This document shows positions 1,859 to 59,906 of a stretch of DNA of 64,000 bases, piece after piece. Position numbers and translations under genes: made by a program. Position 1 is the first letter of the stretch, and every line of letters starts with the position of its first letter. Origin of the DNA: Candidatus Hydrogenedentota bacterium (GTDB lineage: Bacteria > Hydrogenedentota > Hydrogenedentia > Hydrogenedentales > JAEUWI01); contig JAHBVV010000019.1 in the NCBI GenBank assembly GCA_019637335.1, forward strand, positions 391 through 64,390. The letters run 5' to 3'. The notes beneath the pieces were generated by a model, which had not been told where the DNA came from, did not search any database, and saw only the letters and a list, made by a program, of their open reading frames with translations.

Positions 1859-2023
1859 TGTTTCCACATAGCATCCCACTTTCCTTGCCCCGCCTTCGAT
1901 TTCGCGCCGGGGAAACACTGTTCAGGACGCATTCGACGTGGCTCCATCTTTGGCAGGTGTCGTGCTTTCTTTCGGCTGGCGTTGGAACACAAACGCGAGC
2001 GCCTCGCGGAGGGACTTGATCCC

Positions 2024-3187
2024 ATGGGGATGCACAACATGAATGGGTGGAATTGGTTCACCGGCAATAAATGGAAGGCGATCATCGCCGCGGCGGCCGT
2101 GCTCTGCCTCATTGCGGTTGGACTATGGTCGGGCGGCTACGCGGTCCTTCGGTATGTGTGGTATGGCGCCGTGGACGGCCCGATCGCCGTTATTCGCCCG
2201 GATGGCTCCCCGGCGCCCGCGGAAGCGCTTGCCTGGCTGAAACCGGCGGCGGAGAACTTCTTCGCGCAGTCCGGCGATTCCCACTTGCTCGACCTGTGGA
2301 CGAAGCACGGGGCCGCGGGCGTCCTGGCCACCCTGCATGCCGGCACGCGAACGTTTGGTTCGGGTTTCCTTCGTGAGTTCACTTTGGAGAACGCCCCCGA
2401 GATATTTCCCATCCGCACCGAGCGGGGCTGCAATCTGGTCGATTGGGAAGGCAATGTCCACCTGCGGTTGGGTCCCAATGTGGACGATGCGGGGCCTGTG
2501 TCCGGGGGGTTGGTCGCCGTGCGGCGACGTACGGTGGATGATGGGTCGGGAACGGCCAAAGCCGCCTGGGCGTACCAGAATCTGGACGGGGAGACTGTTG
2601 TTCCGGGGCCGTTCGAGATTGCGTTTCCCTTTCAGGAGGGCCTCGCCGCGGTGGCGGTAACGCAGGATGACGGGACGTTGCGCTGGGGAATGATCGACAC
2701 GAGCGGCGCCTGGGCCATTGCGCCCCGTTTCTGGAGTTTGGGCGGGTTTTCGAACGGGCTGGCGCCCGCGGAGATCCGGGCGGACGACAACACGTTGGAG
2801 ACCGCTGGATTCATCGACCGTTCGGGCGCGTTTGCCGTTACGTTGGACGGCGCCCGTGGGATGCTGAGTTCACATCGGGATGGGCTCGCGCTGGTATGGT
2901 ATGGGTCGAGCCCGGGATACGCCCTTGTCGACGAAGCCGGCGCCATCGCCCTGGCGCTCGACTACGAGGACGTGGCCCCCTTTTCAGACGGTCGAGCGCC
3001 GGTGCGGGTCGGCAACGCCTACGGGTATATCGACACGGCGGGCGCGCTGGTGATTCCGGCGAAGTACGAGCGCCCGGCTTCCTTTTGCAGGGGCCTGGCG
3101 GTGGTGGTTCGTTATTCCGCCGTTCGCCATTGGGTGCTTCAAACCTACCTGACGTGGAAAGAGGCGCTTCCGGCGGGCCTGGGGTAG
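2024..3187 (+). CDS. WG (KWG-type) repeat-containing protein, N-terminally membrane anchored
   Basis: N-terminal TM (KWKAIIAAAAVLCLIAVGLW). Repeated motifs are GLAAVAVTQDDGTLRWGMIDTSGAWAIAPRF, GFIDRSGAFAVT and YGYIDTAGALVIPAKYE, typical of the WG_beta_rep family. Confidence 0.6.
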   Translation: MGMHNMNGWNWFTGNKWKAIIAAAAVLCLIAVGLWSGGYAVLRYVWYGAVDGPIAVIRPDGSPAPAEALAWLKPAAENFFAQSGDSHLLDLWTKHGAAGVLATLHAGTRTFGSGFLREFTLENAPEIFPIRTERGCNLVDWEGNVHLRLGPNVDDAGPVSGGLVAVRRRTVDDGSGTAKAAWAYQNLDGETVVPGPFEIAFPFQEGLAAVAVTQDDGTLRWGMIDTSGAWAIAPRFWSLGGFSNGLAPAEIRADDNTLETAGFIDRSGAFAVTLDGARGMLSSHRDGLALVWYGSSPGYALVDEAGAIALALDYEDVAPFSDGRAPVRVGNAYGYIDTAGALVIPAKYERPASFCRGLAVVVRYSAVRHWVLQTYLTWKEALPAGLG

Positions 3188-3254
3188 CCCTGGATTCGCG
3201 GGCCGGCCCCGGAGCGACGCAGAGGCCAATCGCGCGCGGGCGGGCGGCGGCGGT

Positions 3255-4390
3255 GTGTGGGGGGGGGGACAGCCGAGACGGCTGTGCCACGTTCCTTTCG
3301 GGGTGGCTTTTTGGGGGCGGGTACAGGCCCCTTGGGGACTGCCTCCGGCTCTTAAGTGGGCCAACGTATTGTCCAATGGCGCCAATCCAGCCAGTGGCTG
3401 TACCCGCAGAGCTTTCGGCGGGTACAGTCCCCCGCGATTTTGGGGTGGTATTGGGCGCTTTCGCGGCTTGGGTGGAATTTGTCGCGGGCTCCAGTCCCCT
3501 TGGGTCAGCGACGGGACAGCCGCGCCGGTTGTTGGTGTTGTGGGTTGGTTGGGCTGGCTTTTGGTGTTGTGCGGGCTGTTGGTGCGTGGGGTGATGGGGC
3601 GCCGCAGTCCCTGGGGTGGGCGGATTGCGTTGCAGTCCGGGGACAGCCGGGACGGCTATCCTACTTTTCGGCGGGTACAGTTTTTCACTACGCTTCGCGT
3701 CACCCATTAAGGACGAAAAAAGACGGCGGCTTCGCCGCCTGGCAGGCGGGGACGCCTGCGCTCCCAGCCTTTGCCGCTTCCTTGTTTGGGATACTGTAAT
3801 CTGGTTTGCATGGGGCAGTTGTGGTGATGCTGGGGCGCAGGTCGGATTGCGTTGCAGTCCGGGGACAGCCGGGACGGCTATCCTACTTTTCGGCGGGTAC
3901 CGCCGTTCATGACGCGTTGCGTCACCCGTTAAGTTTGAGATACTGCTCCTGACGGTTGCGCTCTTCTGGAGTCTCGCACGCTCAAGCCTTCGCGGCGGAG
4001 CCGCGGAGCTTGAACTTGGCACCCGTGGCTCCCTTTGGGGGCGACGGGACAGCCGCGCCGGTTTTCGGTGTTGTGGGTTGGTTGGGCTCGCTTCTGGTGT
4101 TGTGCGGGCTGTTGGTGTGTGGGGTGGTGTGGCGCCGCAGTCCCTGGGGTGGGCGGATTGCGTTGCAGTCCGGGGACAGCCGGGACGGCTATCCTACTTT
4201 TCGGCGGGTACAGTCGTTCATGACGCGTTGGGTCACCGGTTAGGTTTGAGAAACTGCTCCTGACTGTTGGCGCTCTTCTGGAGTCTCGCACGCTCAAGCC
4301 TTCGCGGCGGAGCCGCGGAGCTTGAACGTCGGAGATCCGCCGCAGGAGGATGGCACCCATGGCTCCCTTGAAATTTCAGAGCAGTCCCCT
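3255..4390. repeat. complex GT-rich modular interspersed repeat block. Includes an internal ~310-bp tandem duplication and three copies of the unit ...GCGTTGCAGTCCGGGGACAGCCGGGACGGCTATCCTACTTTTCGGCGGGTACAG...
   Basis: Sub-units are shared verbatim or nearly so with 6690-7215, 8480-9020 and, in reverse orientation, 55270-55700. Contains the hairpins CCGGGGACAGCCGGGACGGCT and TGACGCGTTGCGTCA. The ORFs here encode low-complexity G/W/V/R peptides and are judged non-coding. Confidence 0.8.
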
Positions 4391-4394
4391 TGGG

Positions 4395-6492
4395 TCAGCG
4401 GTGTGCGATGAGGGTCCAGGCGAATCTTGAGGCGAGGAACATTTCGCAGGCGAGGGTCCAGGGGAGGGCGAGGGGGTTGATGCGGGGCCAGCGTCCGGCG
4501 CGGATGCGGTCGAGGGCGTTTTGGCGGAGGGCGTTGAACTGGCGTCGCCGGGCGACGTAGCGGATGGCGATTTCCTCGTAGCCGGCGATGAGTTTGGTGG
4601 TGACGAAGCGCTCGGCGTCGATGAGGGTGTTCTGGCCGGGGACGTTGACTTCGATGGCGCGGACGTAGGCCTCGACTTCGGCGGCTTTTTGCGCGAGTTT
4701 GCGGCGTGCGGAGGCGCTGAGGTGGCTGCCGGTTTCGCTGAGCTGGCGCAGGCGCGTGGCGGCGGTGTTCAACATTTCGCGCAGCTCGCTTTCGGCGTCG
4801 GCGTAGCGGCCTTCGAGGCGGAAGCCGGCGACCCGCCGCTGTGCGGCGATCCATCGTTCGCGGAGGTCGGCGAGGGTGGCCCATCGGGGGTCGCGGGGCT
4901 TGCGGGTGAGCATCCAGATTTCCTGGAACTCGATGAAGAGCTGGAAGTAGACGCGGAAGCTTTCTCGCGCGTCGAGGAGGCGTCTGCGCAGGTAGGCGAG
5001 GCGGCTTTCGCTGGGGTAGGTGGGCCGGCGGCCGCGGCGCTCTTTGAGGCGGTAGATGCCGGTCGCCATGGGGTGTTGTCCGGTGAGGGCGCCGTGGCGG
5101 TACCAGATGGAGAAGCCGAGGATGGTCCAGTACTGGCGCGCTTCGGCGCGGAGCAGGGCGGCGATGATGTTCTGGGTGCTGTAGAGGGCGTTCATGGCCT
5201 CGTCGTAGGCGGCGCGCCAGCCGCCGCTTCCGAGGCGGGGGTGGCGGAAGGTTTCGTGGAGCCCGTCGTAGTTGTTGTAGTCCGCGTCGATGGGGACGCC
5301 GTCCTGGATCATCCGCCAGTGGTCGCGCGAACCCGGCAGCGGGGTGAGCATGAAGAGGGAGGCGACATCGACCTGGACCTCGTTGCGCAGAAAGGCGATG
5401 TTCTCGCGGACGGATTCCCGGGAGTCGTGGGGGAGGCCGATGATGTAGCCCACATGGACGAGGATGCCGTGTTCGTGCCAGGCGTCGACCATGGCGCGAT
5501 ACTGGTCGGCGTGGTTCTGTCGCTTGCCGACGGCCTTGAGGTTTTCGGGGTTGACGCTTTCCATGCCGATGAAGGCGAGGTAGCATCCGGCGCGGGCGGC
5601 TTTTTCGACGAAGCCGGGGATGCGGTGGGCCTGGGTGTCGGTCTGCATCATGAATCGAACGGCGATGCCGCGCGCGCGCAGGGCGATGAGGCCATCGAAG
5701 ATCGCGCTCCAGGCGGGATTGCGGGAGAAGTTGTCGTCGGTGAAGAAGTAGGAACGGATGCCGCGGGCGTAGTTGTCCTCGACCGCCTCGAGCACGCGTT
5801 CGGCGGGGCGGTAGCGCATCTTGCGGCCCTGGACGTTGATGATGGTGCAGAAGGAGCAGTTGAAGGGGCAGCCGCGGCTGGTGTCGATGGTGGCCATGCG
5901 GCGGGCGAGGTAGCGGCGCTGTAGCCGTTCGCTGGCGCGGGGCACGGGGGCCTGGGCCAGGTCGGGGAACTCGGTGATGTTGTAGATGGGCTGGAGGGCC
6001 TGGCGGAGCGCGTCGCCGAGGAGCCGGGCCATGACGCCGGGGGCCTCCACCTCGCCGCGGACGAGGGTGACCCCGGCGTCGAGCAGGCGCTGGAGATCGT
6101 GGGAGGGCTGGTCGAAGAGCGCGAGCATGCCGCTGACGTGGAAGCCGCCGATCATGACCTGGACGCCGGCGGCGCGGAGATCGAGGGCGAGGTCGGTAGC
6201 GCGCATGAACTGGTTGCTTTGCACACCGGCGAATCCGACGACCACGGTGGTGTCCGGGCGGCGGTTCCAGCGGGCGATGCGGCGGACGGGGATGCGCTCG
6301 AGGGTGTCGTCGAAGACGGAGACGGATACGCGGACGTCCGGGCCCAGTTCGCCCGATTCGCCGGTGTGTTCGGCGAGGCGCTGGAGGCAGCAGAGGGTGT
6401 TGGAGGGGAGGACGCCGCGGAGATAGCGGACGACGTAGCCGTCGTCGTCGTAGCGCGATGGCCGGATGAATACGGCATGCAGGTGCTTCATG
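4395..6492 (-). CDS. B12-binding domain-containing radical SAM protein (class B rSAM with a long C-terminal helical extension)
   Basis: The N-terminal B12-binding region starts at MKHLHAVFIRPSRYDDDGY. The CxxxCxxC motif (CPFNCSFC) is present, followed by the radical SAM core (GMESVNPENL...) and a C-terminal DUF4070-like region. The start is set at the internal ATG (6492), because the upstream extension lies in repeat DNA. Confidence 0.8.
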
Positions 6493-6689
6493 GGTTTAAC
6501 CCGCCCTTTCGTGAAAAAACAGCAGTTCACGAAGCGCGAGCCCGGCCCACAGGCGCACGATTCTCTTGTGGCTTCCTTCCGTGCATGCGGAGGGAATGCT
6601 TTATTGTGGCACAAATCGGGAGGAAAGGGGTAGCGGGGAATTGGGGGTGTGGGGCGAGCCGCTCGGGTGGGGTGGCGCTGGTGGTGGAC

Positions 6690-7215
6690 GGTTGGTGTTG
6701 CTCCAGGCACACGAAGGCGCTGGGGCGCCATCGCGTGGCACGGGGAGTGACCTTTCGGCGGGTACAGTCCCTTTGGGGACTGCCTCTGGCTGACAAGTGA
6801 GCCTACAAAATGTCCAATGGCGCCGATCCAGCCGGTGGCTGTACCCGCAGAGCTTTCGGCGGGTACAGTCCCCCGCGATTTGGGGGTGGTTTTGGGCGCT
6901 TTCGGGGCGTGGGTGGATTTTGTCGCGGGCTCCAGTCCCCTTGGGGCGACGGGACAGCCGCGCCGGTTGTTGGTGTTGTGGGTTGGTTGGGCTGGCTTTG
7001 GGTTTTGTGCGGGCTGTTGGTATGTGGGGTGTTGGGGCGCCGCAGTCCCTGGGGTGGTTCGGATTGCGTTGCAATCCGGGGACAGCCGGGACGGCTATCC
7101 TGCCTTTCGGCGGGTACAGGCCCCCGCGATTTGGGGGTGGTTTTGGGCGCTTTCGCGGCTTGGGTGGTTTTTGTCGCGGGCTCCAGTCCCCCTGGGGGCG
7201 ACGGGACAGCTATTA
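6690..7215. repeat. GT-rich modular interspersed repeat block (same family as 3255-4390)
   Basis: Shares the units GGCGGGTACAGTCCCCCGCGATTTGGGGGTGGT...TTGTCGCGGGCTCCAGTCCCCTTGGGG and GCGACGGGACAGCCGCGCCGGTTGTTGGTGTTGTGGGTTGGTTGGGCTGG... with the other loci. Confidence 0.8.
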
Positions 7216-7266
7216 TGCAGGGATTAATGGGATATGTTCAGGTGGGCCAGCCCGGAGGGAATTCTA

Positions 7267-8474
7267 TGCGGCGTTACGTGGGAATCTGGATGACGGGTGC
7301 GGTGGCCGCGGTCGCCCTGGGCGGATGCGAGGAGATTCCGTGTCCGGAGGCTATTCCAGGGCGTGTGGAGTCGGAAATCACCGCGACCTTTGACGCGCGG
7401 GCGTGGGACATCTGCGCGGCTTCGGGCGGCGGCTTTGTGGTGGCGGGGTACGCCTCCGGACAGCCATTCTCTCCGGTAGCTTCCGCAACGTATGAGAGAA
7501 GTCTCGATTCCTTTGTCGTTATGCTGGACGCATCCGGGAATATCGAGTGGTCCAGGACCTTTGGCGGCGATGGGGCCGACGAGGTGCGAAATATTGAGCC
7601 GGCGGGGGATGGGGGGTATATTGTCGCCGGAAACAAGGGGGCCTCGCCCCTCGATCCGGTCTTCTTTTACGATCCGGCAAGCGTCTTCGCGGCCAGGCTG
7701 GACTCCCAGGGGAGCGTGCTGTGGACCGTGGAACCCGAGACCGATCGCTTCACGGCGGCGTATGGGCTTTGCGTAAATGCCGACGGGAGCTTCGTCGTGG
7801 CGGGGGACACACGAGACGCTGAATACGGGGCGTCCGACGCCTTTTTGATCAAATTCGACCCCAATGGGGCGGAGCTCTGGCGCCGGCGCTATGGCAGTGG
7901 CCGGGATGTGGGCGCCCAAGACGTCATCACAACGAGTGACGGCGGATATGCGTTTACGGGGTACGTACAGGATCAGATTGTAGCCAGGCTTGATGCCGGC
8001 GGCGAAGTACAGTGGGAGTTCTTTCTGGACGAGGTCGCCATTCTTAAGGAATTGGCGTTCAGAACGAAGAAAATCATTGAGACGTCCGACGGTGGGTTCG
8101 CCGTCGTCGGAAGCACCTTTGGCGAACTGCTTGTGCTTAAGCTGGATGGCGGCGGCAACTACTTGTGGCAGGCCCGCGTGTCCGATGTGGGCGAGGCGGA
8201 AGGGCATGCTATTCTGGAGACTGCCGAAGGGGACCTGGTGGCGGCGGGCGTGAGCTACGCGCGCAATTCGTTTGGAAGACGTGTCTGTTCGCATTTGCTT
8301 CTCGTTCGATTGGGGAGCGAAGGGGACATACGCTGGAGCGGTCAGGTGGGCAGCAAGGAAACGATATTTCCGTGCGCCATGGTCGTGGATGGCGATAGCC
8401 TCAAGCTGGCGGGCTCTATTCGGGAGGACTTCGTGCATTCGATCTATCTGGTGACCACGGATGCGGGAGGATGA
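7267..8474 (+). CDS. beta-propeller repeat lipoprotein (delta-60/SBBP-like repeats)
   Basis: Signal peptide plus lipobox (AVALGGCEE). About six repeats of the type DGGYIVAG / DGSFVVAGDT / DGGYAFTGY / DGGFAVVGSTF / EGDLVAAGVSY. Confidence 0.5.
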
Positions 8475-8479
8475 GGGCG

Positions 8480-9020
8480 GTGATGGGTCTCGGCGGGTAC
8501 AGTCCCCCGCGATTTGGGGGTGGTGTTGGGCGCTTTCGCGGCTGGGGTGGTTATTGTCGCGGGCTCCAGTCCCCTTGGGGACTGCCTCTGGCTGGTACGT
8601 GGGCCAACGTATTGTCCAATGGCGCCAATCCAGCCGGTGGCTGTACCCGCAGAGCCTTTCGGCGGGTACAGTCCCCCGCGAGTTGGGGGTGGTGTTGGGC
8701 GCTTTCGCGGCGTTGGTGGTTTTTGTCGCGGGCTCCAGTCCCCTTGGGGGGCGACGGGACAGCCGCGCCGGTTGTTGGTGTTGTGGGTTGGTTGGGCTGG
8801 CTTTGGGTGTTGTGCGGGCTGTTGGTGCGTGGGGTGTTGGGGCGCCGCAGTCCCTGGGGGTGGCGACGGGACAGCCGCGCCGGTTGTTGGTGTTGTGGGT
8901 TGGTTGGGCTGGCTTTGGGTGTTGTGCGGGCTGTTGGGCCGTGGGGTGGTGGGGCGCCGCAGTCCCTGGGGGGCGGCTTGGGTGGTTTTTGTCGCGGGCT
9001 CCAGTCGCCTTGGGGGGGCT
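8480..9020. repeat. GT-rich modular interspersed repeat block (same family). Contains two tandem copies of the ~105-bp GCGACGGGACAGCCGCGCCGGTTGTTGG... unit
   Basis: Direct sequence identity with the 3255-4390 and 6690-7215 blocks. Confidence 0.8.
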
Positions 9021-9023
9021 GCC

Positions 9024-9977
9024 TCAGTCGATGTCTTCCATGGCGACTTGCTGGTTGTAGAAGGCGACGATGCCTTTTTCGCGGAGGGGGTTGCCTTCCT
9101 GCATGTAGGCGAGGGAGGTTTTGGGGTGGCGGTTGAGGTTGCCGGCGATCATGTAGGGCATTTCGTAGCCCCACTTGAGCTCGGCTTTCAACGATTCGAA
9201 GTATTTTTCGATGAGGGCGAGGACGGGGCGCACGTCGTATTTGGGGTTTTTGAGAAAACCGAGGAGGAGTTCGGTGGTGCAGTTGCCGGCGGCGCGGCCC
9301 ATGCCGTAGATGCTGCCGTCGAGCATGTTGATGCCCTTGCGGATGCCCTCGATGGTGTTGGCGAAGGCGAGTTGCTGGTTGTTGTGGCAGTGGATGCCGA
9401 CGGTTTTGCCGTTGAGGCCGTCGAGGTATTTGTCGGCGAGGTAGTGGATCTGTTCGGAGAAGAAATAGCCGAAGCTGTCGACGAGGTAGACGGCTTCGAA
9501 GGAGGTTTTTGCGAGTTCGGCGAGGGCTTCGTCGAGGTCTGGCTCGATGACGGTGGAGGCGGCCATGATGTTCACGCAGACTTCGTAGCCGAGATCCTGG
9601 ATGTGGCGTCCCAGGTGGATGGCCTTGTCCACTTCCTTGGCGTAGGTGGCGACGCGGAACATGGAGATTATGGATTCGTCTTTGGGGAGGAAGGCGTCGT
9701 AGTCGGTGCGTCCGACGTCGACCATGACGGAGATCTTGGTGTCGCATTCGAAGGCGACGTCGCGGAGGTCCTCTTCGTCGCAGAAACGCCAGGGGCCGTG
9801 GTTTTTCGGGTCGAACTGTTTCTTGTCGGCGCGGTAGCCGAGCTCCACGTAGTCCACGCCGGCGTCGACGAGGCCCTGGAAGACGTCCTTCACCATGGGC
9901 TTGTCGAATTCCCAGTTGTTCATGAGTCCGCCGTCGCGGATGGTGCAGTCGAGAACTTTAATTTCGGGGCGGTACAT
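9024..9977 (-). CDS. DRE-TIM metallolyase / pyruvate carboxyltransferase (HMGL-like) family protein
   Basis: The N-terminal VLDCTIRDGG motif plus a TIM-barrel aldolase-like pattern (VDYVELGY..., GIHCHNN) match the HMG-CoA lyase-like family. Confidence 0.7.
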   Translation of the reverse strand: MYRPEIKVLDCTIRDGGLMNNWEFDKPMVKDVFQGLVDAGVDYVELGYRADKKQFDPKNHGPWRFCDEEDLRDVAFECDTKISVMVDVGRTDYDAFLPKDESIISMFRVATYAKEVDKAIHLGRHIQDLGYEVCVNIMAASTVIEPDLDEALAELAKTSFEAVYLVDSFGYFFSEQIHYLADKYLDGLNGKTVGIHCHNNQQLAFANTIEGIRKGINMLDGSIYGMGRAAGNCTTELLLGFLKNPKYDVRPVLALIEKYFESLKAELKWGYEMPYMIAGNLNRHPKTSLAYMQEGNPLREKGIVAFYNQQVAMEDID

Positions 9978-14968: not shown

Positions 14969-15102
14969 TTGGCGGTGTTGCGCTCGTATCCCGGCGCCGG
15001 AGTCACTTCTGGACGAGCCGCCAGTGTAGCATGGCGGCTGGCTTGCTTCTTCGTTTGATCGTTAACGGGCGGCGGCCCCGGATTTGCGGCGCCCGCATCG
15101 CT

Positions 15103-15131
15103 CGAAATTGCGGCCTGCCGGACCGCGTGTT
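15103..15131 (+). promoter_or_regulatory. putative sigma70 promoter (TTGCGG-17-TAGAAT with extended-10 TG) upstream of the large TPR gene
   Basis: TTGCGG at 15103-15108, then a 17-nt spacer, then TGtTAGAAT at 15123-15131. Confidence 0.4.
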
Positions 15132-15237
15132 AGAATGCAGTTGTTGTCTCTGCGGCACAGCAAACATTTCGGGGATTGTTGGTAAGCGCCCGGCGCGCGG
15201 TGGTTTAGCGCGGGCTGGCCTGGATGGCGTGGCCGGA

Positions 15238-18200
15238 ATGGCCGGGCCAACGGCAGAATACCCTTCGGACAGCTTAATGAACGAACCAACCGATCAGAAC
15301 CCGTCTCCGCTCGATCCGGAATTGCTGCGGGAGTTGGAAGCCGCCGAGGCGGGAAGCGGCTCGTCGCTATTGGACGATGCGCCGCTGCTACCGGCTTACC
15401 ACGTCGATGATGATACGCCCCTGGCTCCGGTTGACCCGGATTTCGGGGTCCTTCCAGCCGGTTCCCAGGGTTCAGCGCCATCGGATTTTCTCGGTGGCGA
15501 CGATCAGGCGGAAGAGCCGGCCGGGGCGTCGAGTTCCGACGAGGGGATGATGGACGCAGGGGGCGTCGCTGCTCCAATGCCGACCGAAGTCCTGGATCGC
15601 TTGCTGGCGCCCGATCAAGAGGGCGGGGCATTGGAGGCGGAGCGTGCCGGCCTCGATACGCCCCCCGCCGGGCGTGCGCCCGCGGATCCGGAGGCCGGTA
15701 GGCTGGCGGACATGGATGCGGATGCGGAGCGCGCCCCGTCCGCGTCGTCTCCGCCGGCGCCCGCGGATGCCGCCGCGCCGCCGGTTGCGCCCGCACTTGA
15801 AACCGAAGCGCTTTCCCCGGCGAGGGAAGCCGGGGCCGGCGAGGATACGCTATCTCAAGAAGAACTCGAATCGCTGCTGGCCGCCGCCACGGGTAAGGGC
15901 GCGCTGCCCGAAAGCGCCGGGGCGCCGCCGGAATCCGTATCGGCCTTGGACCTCGAACAATTGCTCGACAGCGCGGTGTCCAGTCTGGCGCCGGGCGCGG
16001 GCGACGCCGGGCCGGAGGCGGAGCCCGAGGACGATCTGGACAGCTATCTGGATTCGGTGTTGCCGGCGGACAGCGCCGCCTCGACCGGGGCCGAGGACAT
16101 TCTCGATCAGTCCAGCATCGACTCATTGCTGTCGGCTTCCGGCGGGGATGAATCCCTTGCGCCGGAGGGGGTAGACGGCCCGATGGGCGGCCCGTTTGGC
16201 GGCGAGGCCGGCGAGAGCGCGCTGGAGGCGTCCGGGTTTGACGCGGATGCTGGATTGCCGGGGGATGCGTCCCCGCCGGACGTTGCGGACGATCTCGGTG
16301 CGGGGGTCGAAATATCTCAGGACATGATCGACGCGCTGATCGCAAGCGCGCAGGCCGAAGCGCCAGTGGAAGGGGGGAGCGGATCCGAGAGCGCCATCGG
16401 CTCCGAGAATCTTGCCGCGGCCGCGACGGCGTCTAGCCCGGACGCGGATCTGCTGTCGCCCAGCGATCTGGACCGGCTGATTGAAGAGTCCCGGCGCCCG
16501 GACTGGAAGCGGCCGGCTTCCGAGGGCGCGGCGCCGGAGATGCCCGCGCCGGAGGCTTCCGCTGGCGCTGTTCCGCCGGAAACGGTTCTGGACGGCGCGG
16601 CCGTTGCGGCCCGCACGCGGCGCTTCCGGAAGCCCGGCGTGATTATTCCGTTTGTCCGGCGTCACCCGTTGCGCCTGGCGGCCAGCCTGCTCGCGGGCCT
16701 CATCGCGGCGGCGGGGACGGGCGCGTTTCTCTGGTCCCACCGCGAGTTTGTGCCGCGCGGTCCGGGCCCGTCGGCCATTCAAGCGCTGGAAGTGGTCATC
16801 GAGCGCGCGCGGGAAGAGATGGCGCGGGGTGATTTCGCGGCCGCGATCGAGGAGCTTGAGGGGCCGCTGTCGCGGGCGCTTCCCAGCGCGCTGCGCGCGG
16901 ACGGGCAGTACCTGCTGCTCGAAGCGCGATACCGCGGCTTTCGCGGCGCGTATGGCACGCCGCCGTTCGACACCATGGTCGCCCAGATCGAGGCGGTGGT
17001 CGAGCAACTTCCCAACCATGCGCGCGCGCCCGAGGCCCTGGCCTGGGAGGCCCGCCTGTACACGCCCGAGCTGCCGTACAAGGCCCTCGACATCTACCGG
17101 CGGATTATTCAGGAATACAGCACGGGTCCGGGGATGGACGGCATCCTGCGCGACGCCGCACGGCTGGCGCTGGAGAACAATCAGACGCTCGACGCGGCGA
17201 TATTCGCGCGGGATCTGCTGCGGCGCTTTCCCGGGTCGCCCCACGCGGGGGACGCGATGCTGACCATTGCCGACACGAATGTTCGTGCGGGCAACATGGC
17301 GGACGCGCGGGCGACCTATGTGCGCATGGCGGAGTCGGAACCGAACTCTCGGCTGGGGGCCCAGGCGTATCTCCGCCTGGCGCGGCTCGCGTTCGAAGCG
17401 GGGCAATACGGCCAGGCGATCTTGCACCTGACGCGGCGCCTGGAGACGACGACGACGACCGAGGGCAACGACGAGGTGTACCTCCTGCTGGCGCAGGCCT
17501 ACCGGGCGTCGGGCCAGTTGAATGAGGCCCGCGATACGCTGGCGGACTTGCTGAACCTCTTTGAGCCGGGCCCGGTCACGCCGCGCGCGTACGTGGAGTA
17601 CACGCAGGTTCTCGAGGCGCTTGGAGATCGGGAGCGCGCCCTGCGCACGGCGCGCCGCGCGGCGCTGGAGTACCCGAATGCTCCGGAGGTGCTGCGCAAC
17701 CAGGGCGAGTTCGAGGGGCTGACGGGCAACGCGCTGCCAGCCGCAATTGCGTTTGTTGCGGCGGATCGGGCGGGGGCCGGCGACCCGAACCTGCTGCTTG
17801 CGGCGGCCCGCTACTACCGCACGGCCAATATGCCCCGCGAGGCGGCGGCGGCCTACGGCCGCCTGAAGACGTACTACGGCGGATCGCCGGCTTCCATTCA
17901 GGGCGGGATCGAAGCGGCCGAGTTGCGTTACGCCGAGGGGGCGGTGGAAGGGGCCATCGCGGACTTGAAATCGCTGCAGGCGGCGACCCGCGGCACCGAA
18001 CACCACCTGCCGGCGGTGCAGTCGCTGCTGGGGATTTACCAGGAGCTCGGGCTTTCGGATCATATAACCGCGCTTGCGGGCGAGGTCGCGCAATTGTCGG
18101 AGGAACCCGAGGTGGTCGCGCGGGCCGCGCTGGATCTCATGAGGGCGGGCGAACTGGAGCGCGCGCAGGCCGCGATTTCGCGGATCGACCTGGCCCGCCT

Positions 18201-18759
18201 CAAGGAGCGAACCGCCTTTGACCTGCTCATGCGCGAGGGCGAGGCCCTGCTTGCGGTCGCCCCGCAACGCGGGCTCGAAAAGATGGAAGCCGCCTTCTTC
18301 AATTACCCCGCCGCCCGGACGCGCGAGGCCGACCAGAAACTGCTCGACACCTACCTGCGGACGGGCCGGGCGGCAGCCGCGCGGCGCATGGTGATGGATC
18401 TGAAGGCCGGGGTCGAACAGCGCCCCGCCGATGCGCCGTATCTCATCGACGCCGCGATTGCGTGGGGGGACTATCTGTACGACCGGGAAGACTACCGGAC
18501 CGCGGTGTTCGCGTATGCCCTGGCGGAGGAAGCGGGTGTTGATCGCGGCGAGCGGGTCTCGGGCATGCGGTCCACGCCGGAATGGGCGCGCTACCAGCGG
18601 GCCAATGCGCTGCTTCGCCTGGCCGATTACGCCGGTTGCCTGCCCCTGTACGAGGCGATTGCGGCGTCCGATTCGCCCTGGGCCGGTGAGGCGGCGGTCA
18701 AGGCGACCGCGGCGCGCCTCGAACAGCGCCAGCGGGGCGTCTCCGTGGCGGCGGGCTAG
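15238..18759 (+). CDS. large TPR repeat protein with ~450-aa acidic low-complexity N-terminal region and a single TM segment (FimV/HubP-like architecture)
   Basis: The N-terminal part is D/E/A/P-rich and disordered. A TM helix (LRLAASLLAGLIAAAGTGAFLW) follows, then about 700 aa of TPR-like repeats. Alternative start at 15277. Confidence 0.6.
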   Translation: MAGPTAEYPSDSLMNEPTDQNPSPLDPELLRELEAAEAGSGSSLLDDAPLLPAYHVDDDTPLAPVDPDFGVLPAGSQGSAPSDFLGGDDQAEEPAGASSSDEGMMDAGGVAAPMPTEVLDRLLAPDQEGGALEAERAGLDTPPAGRAPADPEAGRLADMDADAERAPSASSPPAPADAAAPPVAPALETEALSPAREAGAGEDTLSQEELESLLAAATGKGALPESAGAPPESVSALDLEQLLDSAVSSLAPGAGDAGPEAEPEDDLDSYLDSVLPADSAASTGAEDILDQSSIDSLLSASGGDESLAPEGVDGPMGGPFGGEAGESALEASGFDADAGLPGDASPPDVADDLGAGVEISQDMIDALIASAQAEAPVEGGSGSESAIGSENLAAAATASSPDADLLSPSDLDRLIEESRRPDWKRPASEGAAPEMPAPEASAGAVPPETVLDGAAVAARTRRFRKPGVIIPFVRRHPLRLAASLLAGLIAAAGTGAFLWSHREFVPRGPGPSAIQALEVVIERAREEMARGDFAAAIEELEGPLSRALPSALRADGQYLLLEARYRGFRGAYGTPPFDTMVAQIEAVVEQLPNHARAPEALAWEARLYTPELPYKALDIYRRIIQEYSTGPGMDGILRDAARLALENNQTLDAAIFARDLLRRFPGSPHAGDAMLTIADTNVRAGNMADARATYVRMAESEPNSRLGAQAYLRLARLAFEAGQYGQAILHLTRRLETTTTTEGNDEVYLLLAQAYRASGQLNEARDTLADLLNLFEPGPVTPRAYVEYTQVLEALGDRERALRTARRAALEYPNAPEVLRNQGEFEGLTGNALPAAIAFVAADRAGAGDPNLLLAAARYYRTANMPREAAAAYGRLKTYYGGSPASIQGGIEAAELRYAEGAVEGAIADLKSLQAATRGTEHHLPAVQSLLGIYQELGLSDHITALAGEVAQLSEEPEVVARAALDLMRAGELERAQAAISRIDLARLKERTAFDLLMREGEALLAVAPQRGLEKMEAAFFNYPAARTREADQKLLDTYLRTGRAAAARRMVMDLKAGVEQRPADAPYLIDAAIAWGDYLYDREDYRTAVFAYALAEEAGVDRGERVSGMRSTPEWARYQRANALLRLADYAGCLPLYEAIAASDSPWAGEAAVKATAARLEQRQRGVSVAAG

Positions 18760-18764
18760 ACGCC

Positions 18765-19205
18765 GTGCCCACGTTTTCGCTGCACCACCGCGTGACCGAT
18801 TTTCTCGGGCGCCAGATCGCGTGGAGCGAGGGGGTGCTGGCGGAACTGGACGCGTTTTGCCATGCCGGCGACGCGGCGGATGTGGAGGCCCACCTGGCCC
18901 AGCAGGAGGTCCGCGCCCGCGAGTCAAACGAACTCGCCCGCGAATACGCCGGACTCGCCAGCGAGTGGGCGCGGGGCGCGGACGTTCCACCCGGCGCGCG
19001 CGAGGAGATCGCGCGGCTTTCGAGCGTCTCCGAGGAACTTCTGGGGCGGGTTCAGGCGGGGTATGCGCGGGCTGAAACCGTGGTGGCGGCGCTGCGCGAC
19101 AGAAATCGTGAGGCGCAGGCCGACTTGCGGCGGGGCCGCCGCTCTGTCACTATTTACACACCGCCTAACCTGGAGCCGCCGGGCTTTCTGGACACCGACG
19201 CCTGA
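18765..19205 (+). CDS. hypothetical helical protein
   Basis: 146 aa and helical. It is co-directional and tightly spaced between the TPR gene and the PAS kinase. No firm family assignment. Confidence 0.35.
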   Translation: MPTFSLHHRVTDFLGRQIAWSEGVLAELDAFCHAGDAADVEAHLAQQEVRARESNELAREYAGLASEWARGADVPPGAREEIARLSSVSEELLGRVQAGYARAETVVAALRDRNREAQADLRRGRRSVTIYTPPNLEPPGFLDTDA

Positions 19206-19249
19206 ATGCGTGGCTTGGCGTATGGACGCGACAACGACAAGAGCACCCG

Positions 19250-20398: not shown

Positions 20399-20407
20399 GA
20401 TCGCCGG

Positions 20408-21823: not shown

Positions 21824-22260
21824 TTGGGGGTTGGTGTTGTGAGGTTGGGTGCGGTCGTTGCCGTGGGCAGGAATGCTCGCGATCCTGGGGGGCGATCGCG
21901 TAGCGCGGGTGTCGGTGGGGTTGGGGTGGCTTGGGTTGGGGGTGATCGCTCGTTCAGGGTGGTGGGGCTGGATGTGGGGTGGTTGTTGCTCCGGGCACAC
22001 GAACGCGCCTGGGGCGCGATCGCGTGGCACGGGTGTCGGTGGGGTTTGGGTGGATTGGGAAGGGTTGGGGAGCGTGTGGAATCCGGGGGTTGTGTTGGGT
22101 CAGGCAGGGATGCCTAACCTCCTGTTGCGTCGCTGGTGTGTGGTGGGGTTGGGTGGATTGGGAAGGGTTGGGGAGCGTGTGGAATCCGGGGGTTGTGTTG
22201 GGTCAGGCAGGGATGCCTGACCTCCTGTTGCGCCGCTGGTGTGGTGTAGGGTTGGTTGTT
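21824..22260. repeat. GT-rich repeat block. Includes a perfect ~105-bp tandem duplication (22044-22148 / 22149-22253) with the hairpin GTCAGGCAGGGATGCCTGAC
   Basis: The two 105-bp units differ at about three positions. The upstream part (GGTTGTTGCTCCGGGCACACGAACGCGCCTGGGGCGCGATCGCGTGGCACGGG) matches 6695-6750. Confidence 0.8.
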
Positions 22261-23972: not shown

Positions 23973-23984
23973 GCGATGGGGGGC

Positions 23985-24200
23985 CGCGGGGCCGCAACCA
24001 AAGAAATGATCACCACGAAGGGCGCGAAGACCACGAAGCGAAGGAGAGACGAAGCTTTGACCGCAGAGAACGCAGAGAGCGCATAGGGTGATTTCTTGTA
24101 CGCAGAGGGATTGGGTGGATGATCTAGAGCGCATTCTTAACCACGAATGAACACCAATGCACACGAATGCATCGGGAGCAGCCGCGGGCGGCGATAAAGA
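23985..24200 (+). repeat. ~200-bp interspersed repeat element, copy 1 (GGCCGCAACCAAAGAAATGATCACCACGAAGGGCGCGAAGACCACGAAG...CGCAGAGAACGCAGAGAGCGCATAG...CCACGAATGAACACCAATGCACACGAATGC)
   Basis: Near-identical 5' part to 24346-24560. A reverse-complement copy is at 59620-59850. Confidence 0.75.
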
Positions 24201-24345: not shown

Positions 24346-24560
24346 GCTTCTGGCCGCAACCAAAGAAATGATCACCACGAAGGGCACGAAGACCACGAAG
24401 GAAAGAAGTTGGAGAAGGATTGATATTCACGCGAAGGCGCAAATACGCAAAGAAGCTGGTGTGGGCGTGATGCACAGTCACGGCGGGCGGGGGACTGGAT
24501 TTGGAGCCACAAAGAGCGCATAGAACACAGAGAAATTCTGTGATGGCGACTGGCCTGAGG
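24346..24560 (+). repeat. ~200-bp interspersed repeat element, copy 2
   Basis: The first ~50 nt are identical to copy 1 with one mismatch. The 3' part is diverged. Confidence 0.75.
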
Positions 24561-33954: not shown

Positions 33955-34081
33955 GGGCGGGAGTATACGTCACGGGCCGGAACCGAGAAAAGGGGAGCGA
34001 GGTCCGAAGCCAGGCTGTGCTGCACCGCTCGCCAATGCCGCGGCATTGTACCCACGAATTGTTTCATGTACATTAGCCGAC

Positions 34082-34996: not shown

Positions 34997-35107
34997 ACAG
35001 ATTGCGTTATCGCGCTATACGTGCGTTGGCATTTGTTCGTGGTCGTTGGCGGATTTGCGGCGCGAGAGCCAGCGGACTATCATGTCACCCATCAGGAGGG
35101 CAGGGTC

Positions 35108-36442: not shown

Positions 36443-36807
36443 TCACCAGTCGCGATTCGAGCAAACCGACAGTCCCACCCGCCTCTCAATAGCTTCTCGG
36501 CAATGAGGCAGCATTGTGCGTCTTGAAGATTTCATGTACATTAGACAACTCAGGCAGCGAGCAATGAATTCGGAGCAGCCGCTCATGACGCGTTTCGTCA
36601 CCCATTAAGGATGAATGCCGCTTCTGACTGTTGGCGATCAACGGAAGTCCCGTACCCTCAAGTCGTGACCGCTTTTGGCGGGGGTTCGAGAAAGAAAACG
36701 CAGAGATACGGATTGACGCCTCCCGTCACCCACAAGCTGATGGCCGCTTGAGGCGGCCCGCTTGAGGGTGGCACCCGTCGCTTCTTTTTAAATTTCGGAG
36801 CAGGCCC

Positions 36808-37458
36808 ATGAACCAACCCAATCCCAAGGTGGACGACTACCTCGACAACGGCTGCGGGCGCTGTCCCCTCGGCGGCACGCCCCAGTGCAAAGTCCACCAA
36901 TGGACCGACGAACTGGTCCGCCTGCGCGCCATTCTGCTCGAATGCGGCCTGGCCGAGGAGCGCAAGTGGGGCGCCCCCTGCTACACCTGGGAAAACAACA
37001 ACGTCGCCATGCTCGGCGCGCTCAAGGAGTCCTGCACGCTGGGCTTCTTCAAGGGCTCCCTCCTGGACGACCCCGCCGGAATCCTTGAAAAACCCGGCGA
37101 GAACTCCCGCGCCATGCGCGTCATACGCTTCCGCGACGTCCGTGAAATTGAGGCGAGGAAATCGGCCCTGAAACGCGTCATCGGCGCGGCGATTGAGGCC
37201 GAGAAGGCCGGGCTCAAGGTGGATCTGGAAAAGGACGGCGCGCTCCCGATACCCGAAGAGCTCCAGGAACAATTCGACCAGGACCCCGCCTTCAAGGCCG
37301 CCTTCGACGCGCTCACGCCCGGCCGCCAGCGCGGCTACCTCCTCCATTTCGTCGCGCCAAAACAATCCAAAACCCGCGCCTCGCGAATCGAGAAGTGCAT
37401 GCCCCAGATCTTCGAGGGCATCGGCCTGCACGACCACTACAAGCAGCGCGCGCGGTAG
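36808..37458 (+). CDS. YdeI/OmpD-associated family protein (DUF1801)
   Basis: The N-terminal signature is MNQPNPKVDDYLDNGCGRCPLGGTPQCKVHQW. Confidence 0.65.
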   Translation: MNQPNPKVDDYLDNGCGRCPLGGTPQCKVHQWTDELVRLRAILLECGLAEERKWGAPCYTWENNNVAMLGALKESCTLGFFKGSLLDDPAGILEKPGENSRAMRVIRFRDVREIEARKSALKRVIGAAIEAEKAGLKVDLEKDGALPIPEELQEQFDQDPAFKAAFDALTPGRQRGYLLHFVAPKQSKTRASRIEKCMPQIFEGIGLHDHYKQRAR

Positions 37459-55266: not shown

Positions 55267-55269
55267 GGG

Positions 55270-55700
55270 GACTGCCAAGGGGTCTGCCTCCCGCGACAAG
55301 TTACACCCCAGCCGCGAAAGCGTCCAAGCCTACCCCCAGCTCGCGGGTGGCTGCTCCGAAAAAACACAGGCGGGACGCCTGTGCCACATTCCCTCAAAGG
55401 TACTCTTGAGAACCAAGGTGAAGCGCGCAAAGAACGTGGCACAGCCGTCCCGGCTGTGTACCGGTTGCAACGCAACCGGCTTTTATCCTTAACGAGTGAC
55501 GCAACGCGTCATGATAGGCCGTAGCAGCCAATCCCGAGGGCATTGCCTCCCGCAAAAAGATCCACCCCAGCCGCGAAAGCGCCCAAGCCTACCTCCAGCT
55601 CGCGGGTGGCTGCACCCGTGAGGCACAATGTTATAAAGGGCGCGTTTTGGATCGTTGGCATTTCGCCTACGGCGAATCCCGGACCGTGCCGGCACAGATG
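55270..55700 (-). repeat. reverse-orientation copies of the GT-rich modular repeat family (two sub-copies at 55270-55355 and 55540-55625, plus the TGACGCGTTGCGTCA hairpin unit at 55490-55512)
   Basis: The reverse complement is GCCACCCGCGAGCTGG(G/A)GGTAGGCTTGG(A/G)CGCTTTCGCGGCTGGGGTG...TTGTCGCGGGAGGCAGACCCCTTGGCAGTCCCC, which parallels the plus-strand units at 3420-3500 and elsewhere. Confidence 0.7.
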
Positions 55701-59850: not shown

Positions 59851-59906
59851 CCAGCGGCGGCCCCGCAGCTTCTTCGGTGGGGCCGCCCAAGGGTTTTCCC
59901 CGTCCT

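Follow-up and report, generated by a model that had tools for sequence, protein, structure and literature searches.

BIME-like mosaics of candidate REP palindromes in the intergenic spaces of an uncultured Hydrogenedentota bacterium

Introduction

On either side of an rSAM gene in the Hydrogenedentiales-like chromosome of an uncultured Hydrogenedentota bacterium, the intergenic spaces hold GT-rich modules in varying order and copy number, which raises the question of what kind of element these arrays represent and how they arose. Analysis of the window (the whole 64-kb stretch of DNA) together with loci of relatives suggests that the arrays are probably clusters of REPs organised as BIME-like mosaics in one uncultured lineage. 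This kind of element is already known, as GTAG-tagged REP clusters with co-amplified linkers; the lineage-specific family itself is undescribed.

Genome-wide copy number is a defining feature of REPs, and in BIMEs the REPs alternate in orientation and are separated by short linkers of tens of nucleotides. Other intergenic repeats include the streptococcal BOX elements, which are modular (boxA-boxB(n)-boxC), and the Correia elements, which show terminal inverted repeats as well as a TA duplication. By the published definition, GTAG REPs may also be tagged with GTGG, show compensatory changes in the stem, form dimers or clusters, and donate stop codons (PMC3733652, PMC2817692, PMC8266576).

Results

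Organisation of the arrays

The repeat blocks are real, as they were reproduced both by self-blastn of the window and by nhmmer profiles for each module. The profiles recovered about 31 copies of seven modules, A to G (54-232 nt), across six intergenic spaces, all 31 copies being extragenic and none (0) lying inside a gene. Motifs listed in the original prediction were found again, the 14-mer TTCGGCGGGTACAG occurring nine times at no more than one mismatch (0.04 expected), and the strand asymmetry is evident from an array G+T content of 0.61-0.74. Copies are 90-95% identical within the 3-9 kb cluster and about 80% identical when dispersed (pairwise divergence 5-20%), junctions are unique, and multi-module blocks are in common at 91-92% identity over 320-366 nt in self-blastn.

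The first array (R1, 3255..4394, +) lies between the convergent WG-repeat gene (end 3187) and rSAM gene (stop 4395), with modules D'-C-A-B-D-E'-D-E-B-D-E at 3265-4377. R2 (6671..7210, +) separates the rSAM and lipoprotein genes, which are divergent; its GT-rich lead-in is followed by modules F-C-A-B-D-A (6697-7194) and by the opening 12 nt of a B. R3 (8486..9017, +), between the convergent lipoprotein and HMGL-like genes, reads A-C-A-B-B-A (8504-9012), the last A being a 3' half. R4 (21824..22260, +), 3' of a sigma-54 activator gene, comprises a GT-rich stretch, a partial F and then F-G-G (21986-22240). R5 (55268..55625, -), between FAD-oxidoreductase and NHL-repeat genes, holds A, the head of E, a variant of D, a second, inverted hp1 REP and A (55276-55608), and a solo E of 232 nt occupies 36578..36809 (+; profile match 36580-36796). 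Modules of any one array share the same direction.

This layout narrows two earlier statements. A single module set was proposed for all blocks, which is overstated for 21824-22260, where only F (about 73 nt, 85%) is in common with the other blocks and the remainder is a 103-nt tandem unit of its own, repeated 2.2 times. Likewise, the spaces separating the WG-repeat, rSAM, beta-propeller and HMGL-like genes (3188-4394, 6492-7265 and 8475-9023) are largely filled with modules, with the exception of 6492-6670, a conserved, non-repeat rSAM leader.

Modules without the tagged palindrome

Module A (3429..3503, +; further + copies at 6870-6943, 7121-7194, 8504-8577, 8673-8746 and, as a 3' half, 8973-9012; reverse copies at 55276-55349 and 55536-55608) consists of about 55 nt of GT-rich sequence between CCCGCGA and TCGCGGG, with the conserved centre TTGGRCGCTTTCGCGGCTKGGGTG. 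Module B (3520..3612, +; also 4053-4145, 6958-7050, 8763-8855 and 8875-8967) has imperfect 14-nt inverted ends, GGGACAGCCGCGCC and GGCGCCGCAGTCCC, that enclose about 70 nt of GT-rich sequence, and module C (3329..3427, +; also 6770-6868 and 8572-8671) starts with the palindrome CAGTCCCC-TT-GGGGACTG and ends in GTGG-CTGTACCCGC-AGAGCTTTCG-GCGGGTACAG. The tandem unit G within R4 (+) forms a hairpin, GGTCAGGCA-GGGA-TGCCTGACC.

Element E (3904..4035, +; complete at 4215-4377 and 36580-36796; represented by its head alone at 3684-3719 and, in reverse, 55475-55515) is 165-232 nt long, and a palindromic motif previously listed as a fourth module is present but turned out to be its head. E has a left hairpin (TGACGC-GTT-GCGTCA), an internal hairpin that varies from copy to copy (CGCGGC-GGA-GCCGCG, or GGCCGC-TTGA-GGCGGCC in the 36.7 kb copy) and the right end TGGCACCC..GCT..AAATTTC(G/A)GAGCAG.

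Module F (6697..6749 and 21986-22038, +) is a long imperfect hairpin, GCACACGAAGGCGC-TGGG-GCGCCATCGCGTG, and is conserved in the relative L060 with two compensatory stem pairs; across five copies from two organisms, 11 stem pairs are 100% paired and two pairs have changed on both sides. Hairpins are thus kept despite sequence change in F, in hp1 (below) and at the internal hairpin of E, whose sequence differs between copies. Whole-module folding energies of A, B and E were indistinguishable from those of shuffles. In their behaviour, A, B, C, E and F resemble the additional motifs that accompany REPs in BIMEs, and the co-amplified flanks known from BIMEs and REP clusters.

A GT[AG]G-tagged palindrome in module D

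The decisive evidence for a REP comes from module D (3617..3680, +; also 3839-3901, 4150-4213 and 7057-7119), in which two hairpins abut. The first, hp2, is CGGATTGC-GTT-GCAGTCCG and is preceded by GTGG in three of the four copies. The second, hp1, reads GGACAGCCG-GGA-CGGCTATCC followed by TAC on the + strand and GTAG-GATAGCCG-TCC-CGGCTGTCC on the - strand. With eight copies in the window, hp1 is a 23-24-nt palindrome, GT[AG]G-(G/C)A-CAGSCG-TCC-CGSCTG-T, whose stem is 8-9 bp long and whose loop is 3 nt; in 6/8 copies an unpaired GT[AG]G sits at the foot. The tag, on the - strand, is GTAG at 3641-3664, 3863-3886 and 4174-4197, GTGG at 3267-3290, GCAG at about 7080-7103 and GGAG at about 3741-3762, where the stem is CAGGCG. 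At 55365..55458 hp1 forms an inverted doublet with inward tags (CACAGGCGGGACGCCTGTGCCAC, a 48-nt spacer, GTGGCACAGCCGTCCCGGCTGTG), whose stems differ by a single compensatory C-G/G-C exchange; more generally, CAGCCG/CGGCTG stems alternate with CAGGCG/CGCCTG. Within the window hp1 therefore occurs singly, abutting hp2 in module D, and as an inverted doublet, and R3 and R4 lack it.

In the relative L061 (74% aa) hp1 occurs as a canonical head-to-head dimer, GTAG-GACAGGTG-TCC-CGCCTGTC-AAA-GACAGCCG-GGA-CGGCTGTC-CTAC, with both copies tagged and the TAG of a tag serving as stop codon of the upstream gene. Among relatives hp1 is sparse: about 100 kb of loci yielded a single dimer. The REP/BIME likeness noted in the original prediction is borne out by this dimer and by the tagged palindrome of D, which conforms to the published REP definition (PMC3733652, PMC8266576). 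A generic scan for GT[AG]G plus palindrome showed no enrichment (43 observed against 33 +/- 6 in shuffles), and the GTGG that precedes hp2 or tags the C hairpin, sitting in GT-rich sequence, could have arisen by chance.

Relatives and databases

The modules matched nothing in Rfam, where a search proposed at the outset returned no family even at E <= 1, nor in plasmid and phage records, species-representative genomes or JGI metagenomes, and six-frame translation gave no protein homologue. In a strain of 96% aa identity a different module adjoins the rSAM stop codon. That the blocks are collapsed or chimeric low-complexity sequence is highly improbable: short-read contigs of this strain do terminate inside the arrays, in exactly these sequences, but copies diverge and junctions are unique, hairpins related to F and hp1 are seen in assemblies made from different samples, and the arrays are not an artefact of the contig because the orthologous rSAM gene of a close relative is flanked at both ends by module sequences in two independent assemblies.

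Discussion

Comparison with known REP systems

GTAG-superfamily REPs and REPINs (Nunvar 2010; Bertels & Rainey 2011; Di Nocera 2013) are like hp1 in size, stem, loop and unpaired GT[AG]G foot, in sub-families that differ by complementary stem changes, and in occurring as singletons, dimers and clusters. For hp1, pairing is seen in the 55.4 kb inverted doublet and in the L061 dimer, and the tag in L061 donates a TAG stop codon. The window arrays differ in being mostly non-REP sequence; hp1 has no match among the consensus sequences in the portion of PMC2817692 compared, and Hydrogenedentota is absent from the REP-bearing phyla named in the parts of the REP literature compared. The C-A-B-D blocks are similar, by description, to clustered REP blocks such as GTAG-23 of Thermomicrobium roseum and other 'grouped' REPs (Di Nocera 2013), although their structure is more elaborate and draws on at least seven types of module.

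Like the arrays, BIMEs of E. coli are extragenic mosaics that join REPs to a few other conserved motifs, the order and number of which vary, and they are often found where two genes converge. The modular shuffling once regarded as unusual is therefore ordinary, as mosaicism is typical of BIMEs. Unlike them, the window modules are 54-232 nt long, strongly GT-rich and co-oriented, with R3 and R4 devoid of tagged REPs. Several points speak against the REP reading: no RAYT or Y1 transposase gene was found among the approximately 45 ORFs of the window scanned against Pfam, the tagged palindrome is missing from the greater part of the arrays (A, B, C, E and G), hp1 is sparse in relatives, the generic scan shows no enrichment, and the co-orientation departs from the alternating REPs of classic BIMEs.

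If the arrays are REP clusters, a REP-associated tyrosine (HUH/Y1) transposase whose gene lies elsewhere in the genome would act on the tagged hairpins in single-stranded DNA, cutting at CT dinucleotides and transferring strands. A published RAYT cleaves between the C and the T, to either side of a REP and also at a distance (PMC3479197). All module junctions are CAG on the GT-rich strand and thus C|TG on the hp1-tag strand, which is compatible with RAYT-type joints, an argument that is statistically weak because the exact junction is ambiguous within shared motifs. Tandem duplication, together with recombination at short motifs common to all modules (CAGTCCCC, GGGACAG and TTTCGGCGGGTACAG), may then enlarge and reshuffle the arrays, and C-A-B-D blocks may have been copied to adjacent intergenic spaces. 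The arrays are dynamic, as seen in filled and empty sites for E, the tandem B-B of R3 and G-G of R4, the strain-specific module next to the rSAM stop, and an extra A in R3, which lies between GGGTACAG and TCCCCTTGGGGACTG where R1 and R2 have none.

Alternative origins

Alternatively, several MITE-like families could have inserted next to or into each other by means of a DDE-type or other transposase with target duplications of about 8 bp, the REP-like hairpin being a passenger or one of the families. This is unlikely. The solo E is a discrete 232-nt insert between the promoter and Shine-Dalgarno site of a DUF1801/OmdA gene, flanked by 8-bp direct repeats of CGGAGCAG that occur once at the paralogous empty site (34093-34110); the first A of R3 has CAGTCCCC on either side, and short inverted repeats lie close to the ends of A and of B. 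However, E has no terminal inverted repeats, and the CGGAGCAG 'duplication' belongs to the 3' end of the element and is not a duplicated target, because the copy at 4215-4377 ends in TTTCAGAGCAG but its left flank is GGGTACAG. The 91-92% identity of long blocks indicates block copying instead of independent insertions, and no transposase was found in the window. A MITE-like character, suggested previously, applies loosely and to E only. Streptococcal BOX and Neisseria Correia/MITE-type elements are comparable in being intergenic, hairpin-forming, modular and variable in copy number, with E matching the latter as a discrete insert, but neither has a sequence relationship with the window modules, and E lacks the terminal repeats and TA duplication of Correia elements.

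Perhaps an IS200/IS605-family TnpA, rather than a RAYT, mobilises palindrome-associated elements by strand-specific insertion 3' of a short target resembling the element's end, which would string modules together head to tail and couple their orientation to replication. Consistent with this and with IS608-type transposition, terminal inverted repeats and a clean target duplication are both absent, hairpins are subterminal, all modules end in CAG and start directly after another CAG, and co-orientation is regional, the GT-rich strand being the locally G-rich one (the + strand up to about 34 kb and the - strand at 55 kb). Such an origin is nevertheless quite improbable: orientation rests on three independent regions, the E copy at 36.6 kb is + where skew is almost nil, neither tnpA nor tnpB was found in the window, any guide/target relationship is only putative, and the GT[AG]G tag is a signature of RAYT-associated REPs, pointing to that clade.

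It is similarly doubtful that the modules are mainly RNA elements, copied for their usefulness at gene ends as terminators, mRNA-stabilising 3' hairpins or small RNAs. Correctly oriented terminator-like hairpins do lie 3' of the rSAM gene (3721..3740, -, with a T-run on the CA-rich strand of an E'-type composite) and of the FAD-oxidoreductase gene (55461-55479, +), compensatory changes preserve hairpins, and REPs are reported to act on mRNA (PMC3733652). Yet the modules lack an Rfam match, A, B and E fold like shuffles, G-T/A-C mismatches of hp1 and hp2 favour opposite strands, and orientation is independent of flanking genes, R2 being bordered by two 5' ends and R4 having its GT-rich strand as the sense strand. 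RNA function would moreover be a possible effect rather than an alternative origin.

As REP clusters, the arrays would likely have the effects of known REPs, providing hairpins at the 3' ends of genes that are terminator-like or mRNA-stabilising, acting as hot spots of recombination and causing breaks in short-read assemblies.

Composition and setting of the repeat arrays

Self-blastn of the window recovered repeat blocks at 3300-3711, 3840-4327, 6671-7210, 8490-9017, 21884-22255 and 36578-36662, together with reverse-orientation blocks at 55275-55354 and 55544-55618. The recurrence at several loci described in the original prediction was reproduced by this search, by alignments and by nhmmer profiles. 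The repeats are genuine and well above chance expectation, and the junction 14-mer TTCGGCGGGTACAG occurs 9 times where 0.04 occurrences are expected. Alignments and nhmmer profiles resolved seven modules: A (~75 nt; 7 full copies, 2 of them reversed, and one 3' half), B (~94 nt; 5 copies), C (~100 nt; 3 copies), D (~64 nt; 4 copies and 2 variants), E (133-232 nt; 3 full copies and 2 heads), F (~54 nt; 2 copies) and G (~103 nt; 2 tandem copies). Among the five arrays, R1 (D'-C-A-B-D-E'-D-E-B-D-E), R2 (F-C-A-B-D-A, then the start of B) and R3 (A-C-A-B-B-half A) lie at 3-9 kb, R4 (F-G-G) at about 22 kb and R5 (A, D variant, E head, A; all reversed) at about 55 kb. Derivation of all blocks from one module set, as originally proposed, holds except for the block at 21.8-22.3 kb, which has only F in common with the others, and a palindromic fourth module once listed as its own unit turns out to be the head of element E, a longer unit. 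Copies within the 3-9 kb cluster are 90-95% identical, whole blocks are shared (C-A-B-D at 91.5% over 366 nt), and for the copies dispersed at 55 and 36.6 kb self-blastn gives 78-82% identity.

All 31 module copies are intergenic, and G+T in the arrays ranges from 0.61 to 0.74. Neighbouring genes with Pfam assignments encode a WG-repeat protein (1982-3187, +), a radical SAM protein (rSAM; 4395-6491, -, between R1 and R2), a PQQ-like beta-propeller lipoprotein (7266-8474, +), an HMGL-like protein (9024-9977, -), a sigma-54 activator (20408-21805), an FAD oxidoreductase (53716-55266) and an NHL-repeat protein (55785-57197). The remaining window is ordinary chromosome, with flagellar switch and hook-length genes, sigma factors, an ars-type cluster, a RecQ-like helicase, a GH31 glycosidase and two-component systems.

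Several further features were recorded in this remainder. A 9-nt tandem repeat of GTGGACGGA (x25.6, 94% matches) occupies 41707-41936, just 3' of the RecQ-like helicase gene (39767-41683), and two adjacent paralogous genes on the minus strand (42061-43305 and 43302-44621) are 76% identical in nucleotides over ~1.15 kb and have no Pfam domain. A second interspersed repeat, unrelated to modules A-G, occupies two long intergenic regions (23977-24170 and 24352-24403, with the inverted sequence at 59675-59867) and is rich in ACCACGAAG / CACGAATG motifs (GGCCGCAACCAAAGAAATGATCACCACGAAGGGC.CGAAGACCACGAAG). A 121-nt intergenic direct repeat (58331-58451 and 58578-58698, 94% identity) precedes a response-regulator gene. 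The first 2000 nt of the window have a GC content of 54-55% against ~65%, and the ORFs there (36-542, 605-1012 and 1376-1858) have no Pfam match.

Small hairpins bound or build the modules

All modules either have small hairpins at their ends or consist of them. Module A consists of CCCGCGA, about 55 GT-rich nucleotides and TCGCGGG, and module B has a GT-rich core inside imperfect 14-nt inverted ends (GGGACAGCCGCGCC / GGCGCCGCAGTCCC). Module C starts with a perfect palindrome, CAGTCCCC-TT-GGGGACTG, and ends with CTGTACCCGC-AGAGCTTTCG-GCGGGTACAG. Module D is formed by two abutting hairpins, with folding z-scores of -1.8 on the plus and -2.9 on the minus strand. Read on the GT-rich strand, all module junctions end in CAG (GGGTACAG, CTCCAG, CCGCAG, TTGCAG, GGGACAG and GAGCAG).

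The second hairpin of D, hp1, reads GTAG-GATAGCCG-TCC-CGGCTGTCC on the opposite strand, and variants are found at 3290 (GTGG-CACAGCCG-TCT-CGGCTGTCC), 55387 (GTGG-CACAGGCG-TCC-CGCCTGTG) and 55436 (GTGG-CACAGCCG-TCC-CGGCTGTG). The latter two form an inverted doublet at 55365-55458 with a 48-nt spacer, in which the stems differ by a single compensatory C-G/G-C exchange. The hp1 hairpin has a stem of 8-9 bp and a loop of 3 nt in 8 copies in the 64-kb window and 2 copies in L061, a contig of a more distant relative. A GTAG or GTGG tag accompanies 8 of these 10 copies, at three separate window loci and in one other organism; the remaining two carry GCAG and GGAG in the tag position. Clusters of hp1 occur in R1 and R2, and R3 and R4 contain no tagged hairpin of this kind. 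A generic scan for GT[AG]G followed by a palindrome was not enriched (43 observed vs 33 +/- 6 in shuffles), so the assignment to repetitive extragenic palindromes (REPs) rests on the recurrent hp1 family and not on tags in general. The apparent tags of hp2, the other hairpin of D, and of the C hairpin are doubtful because their surroundings are GT-rich.

Conservation and turnover in relatives

In NCBI, homologues of the rSAM protein bear the name Candidatus Hydrogenedentes. The closest relative, with an rSAM protein 96% identical, is represented by ~2.3-kb Logan contigs from two sequencing runs. Both contigs (L055, 2387 nt, and L056, 2301 nt) carry the rSAM gene alone and end within repeats on either side, which indicates that the repeats defeat short-read assembly and that metagenome-assembled genomes (MAGs) of this lineage will be fragmented at the arrays. 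A stretch of 234 nt upstream of rSAM, F included, matches the window at 90.6% identity. After the rSAM stop, the relative has the end of B joined to the 3' half of A and the window has the end of E; array content thus differs between very close strains.

Modules A-E were not found in four contigs of more distant relatives (L057, L060, L061 and L063; 70-77% amino acid identity), the exceptions in these contigs being the F hairpin in L060 and hp1 in L061. In L060 the F hairpin lies inside an intergenic repeat of that organism's own, present in three copies. Across 5 copies from two organisms, 11 of 11 stem pairs of the F hairpin are paired and 2 pairs have changed on both sides; the covariation score was reached by 12 of 500 shuffles, and slid controls collapse. 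In L061 a head-to-head hp1 dimer (15473-15524; GTAG-GACAGGTG-TCC-CGCCTGTC-AAA-GACAGCCG-GGA-CGGCTGTC-CTAC) lies directly 3' of a Metallophos gene, which takes its stop codon from the TAG in the dimer's tag. The presence of hp1 in L061, with A-E missing from relatives at 70-77% identity, indicates that hp1 is an older family common to the order and that A-E are young and lineage-specific.

The rSAM leader and promoter (~110-150 nt; window 6492-6600, -) are kept in relatives down to 76% amino acid identity (L055 90-238; L060 8880-9000; L057 7387-7475 and 9876-9965). An inverted repeat, CTTCGTGAA-N-TTCACGAAG, stands immediately before the ribosome-binding site in this leader, and L057 has a second leader copy (83%) ahead of an unrelated gene (AP_endonuc_2).

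Traces of movement

The promoter and 5' end of a DUF1801/OmdA gene (36808-37458) are duplicated at 34062-34187, which provides a filled and an empty site for E. At 36.5 kb a 232-nt E lies between ...TTCGGAGCAG and GCCCATG, and at 34.1 kb the sequence reads ...CCCGGAGCAG|GCCCATG without E. CGGAGCAG is present on both sides of the insert as an 8-bp direct repeat. The full E copy at 4215-4377 ends in TTTCAGAGCAG despite its left flank being GGGTACAG, so that the two flanks do not match; the apparent duplication is thus the 3' end of E itself, set behind a motif that resembles it. In R3, an extra A lies exactly between GGGTACAG and TCCCCTTGGGGACTG, which directly adjoin each other where C begins in R1 and R2. 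Tandem growth is seen in B-B (112 nt x2.1, 94% identity) and in G-G (103 nt x2.2).

The duplication at the DUF1801/OmdA gene covers the promoter and the first ~75 nt (34062-34187 vs 36530-36564 and 36796-36882; 91-95%). The 2.4-kb segment between the duplicates has a GC content of 60-62% in 1-kb windows, lower than its surroundings, and its ORFs (34229-34996 and 35021-36442) have no Pfam match; it looks like an inserted island with a duplicated attachment region.

Larger rearrangement is apparent from gene order. In L060 (1675-11097) a TPR protein, a 146-aa ORF, a PAS kinase, a sigma-54 activator and rSAM follow one another. The matching series in the window (15031-21805) ends in R4 and is followed by the ars-type cluster, and the window rSAM (4395-6491) is inverted and 15 kb off, between R1 and R2. 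The two junctions of this synteny break each have a copy of F. The dynamics observed here comprise tagged hairpins kept by compensatory changes, discrete insert-like behaviour of E and A, duplication of blocks and in tandem, and arrays that turn over rapidly from strain to strain.

Comparison with known repeat systems

REPs of the GTAG superfamily are palindromes of 20-50 nt with a 6-13-bp stem, a short loop and an unpaired GTAG tag at the hairpin foot. They are extragenic, often at the 3' ends of genes, and usually exceed 100 copies per genome, and the gene of the REP-associated tyrosine transposase (RAYT; TnpA-REP, a Y1 HUH enzyme) is typically flanked by its own REPs. Mosaic REP clusters (BIMEs) combine REPs in alternating orientation with a small number of conserved linker motifs, and tandem reiteration is common. 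The hp1 hairpin resembles GTAG REPs in its stem-loop, tag, extragenic site, inverted dimers and clusters, and has every structural REP feature compared here. The 64 kb of the window contain 8 hp1 copies, and the array-internal ends of the close relative's contigs are the sole indirect hint of a high copy number. A limited motif set and reiteration are likewise present in the arrays; unlike in BIMEs, however, alternating orientation is confined to D and the 55.4-kb doublet, and the modules of one array are co-oriented. The modular shuffling, which had been called unusual, is ordinary in kind because a BIME is by definition a mosaic of few motifs in varying order. Less usual for a REP/BIME system are the long modules (54-232 nt), their co-orientation within each array, the strong strand asymmetry, and R3 and R4, where tagged REPs are missing.

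In Di Nocera et al. (PMC3733652), REPs have stems of 6-13 bp and 2-3-nt loops, their tags can degenerate to GTRG or GTGG, and complementary changes in the stem set sub-families apart. Dimers there, head-to-head or tail-to-tail, have spacers of 1-100 nt; heterodimers, a species with blocks concentrated at few loci, and TAG stop codons donated by tags are also described. GTAG- and GTGG-headed REPs of the size of hp1 are listed by Nunvar et al. (PMC2817692), and a further study notes that REPs are often organised in BIMEs and tandem copies (PMC8266576). On balance, the repeats probably represent a genuine lineage-specific REP/BIME-type system in the Hydrogenedentota chromosome, with a slight possibility of the long strand-oriented modules being something more distinctive.

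Another mobile type considered is the non-autonomous IS200/IS605 element, which has subterminal hairpins, lacks inverted ends and target duplication, inserts 3' of a 4-5-nt target and depends on a cognate TnpA. Subterminal hairpins, the lack of inverted ends and duplication, and an insertion motif are all compatible with the modules here. A transposase (Y1_Tnp, RAYT or tnpA) was not found among ~45 window ORFs scanned against Pfam, a set that covers small ORFs in part. MITEs carry terminal inverted repeats and a fixed-length target-site duplication; E has no terminal inverted repeats and its second full copy has no matching flanks, and in A and B the inverted repeats are internal and the flanks are shared motifs rather than clean duplications. 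Module B does not fit a CGTC-type REP, since published examples have 8-9-bp stems and 4-5-nt loops.

Several further readings were rejected. Long ORFs across the arrays are spurious, have no homologues and are shifted in frame by module order; canonical G-quadruplex motifs show no concentration in A or B (3 of the 16 on the plus strand lie in R4); the GGGA-loop hairpins are not a genome-wide class, with 11 of 13 inside arrays; and on inspection the TGGCAC motifs have the wrong spacing between GG and GC elements for a sigma-54 promoter.

Database searches gave the arrays no known family. The Rfam search proposed with the original prediction matched none to them even at E <= 1 (Rfam 15, 3100-9100), blastn of the modules against plasmids and phages returned nothing, and six-frame translations of C-A-B-D and E had no match at E <= 1e-3 in a collection of 5.8 billion proteins. 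In genome contigs, from which the source genome is absent, 35 single matches to the centre of A in unrelated taxa are attributed to chance, because none extended past the pattern. Metagenome contigs contained 0 matches to a mismatch-tolerant A pattern and 0 to the left end of E, and viral contigs gave single matches to a junction 16-mer, at about the number expected by chance. A chimeric query of six flanking proteins retrieved no near-identical match, its result being swamped by giant repeat proteins. The only Rfam match in the window is a cobalamin riboswitch (RF00174, 66.6 bits; 47769-48070, +), upstream of a Pfam-less gene run, a gene with a prepilin-type N-terminal methylation motif and a beta-helix protein.

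Possible mechanism and strand orientation

A RAYT-type Y1 HUH enzyme encoded elsewhere may recognise the tagged hairpin on single-stranded DNA; strand transfer after recognition by such enzymes is described in PMC3479197. Recombination at short motifs common to the modules would then reshuffle the arrays. On the strand bearing the hp1 tag every module junction is C|TG, and E can be read as TGCTCCG...GAGCGGC inserted within CC|TG at the empty site. These junctions are compatible with RAYT joints, weakly so because junction position is ambiguous within shared motifs.

In every case the GT-rich repeat strand is the locally G-rich strand, which fits replication-tied single-strand mobilisation, in three independent regions only. 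Plus-strand GC skew is positive for all genes up to ~34 kb in either orientation, mostly negative at 36.8-57 kb, and once more weakly positive beyond 58 kb. The changes at ~34-37 kb and ~58 kb could mark a terminus-like replication switch or an inverted segment. Terminator-like hairpins with a T-run lie on the CA-rich strand, correctly downstream of the rSAM (3721-3740, -) and FAD-oxidoreductase (55461-55479, +) genes, and are possibly by-products of the arrays.

It is rather unlikely that A, B, G and E, instead of being passive linkers, are a distinct class of strand-oriented single-strand mini-elements whose insertion site is a C|TG joint similar to their own ends. If they were, they would be concatenated head to tail into cassette-like arrays whose orientation tracks the replication strand, and the tagged REP would be one among several substrates of a single HUH enzyme. 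The arrays would then also mark rearrangement breakpoints, rSAM having left its ancestral sigma-54-regulator neighbour with F at both junctions.

Implications for Hydrogenedentota

The family is a new example of the already known REP/BIME type. Its long, co-amplified and strongly strand-asymmetric modules make it an unusually rich example of REP-cluster growth and leave the known REP mechanism unchanged. The hp1 consensus supplies what a search for the cognate RAYT and a census of the family require. The arrays break short-read assemblies; they may serve as flags of rearrangement breakpoints in Hydrogenedentota MAGs and, because they differ between strains 96% identical in protein, perhaps also as strain markers. 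A REP/BIME-type system is thereby added for a candidate phylum known almost solely from metagenomes.
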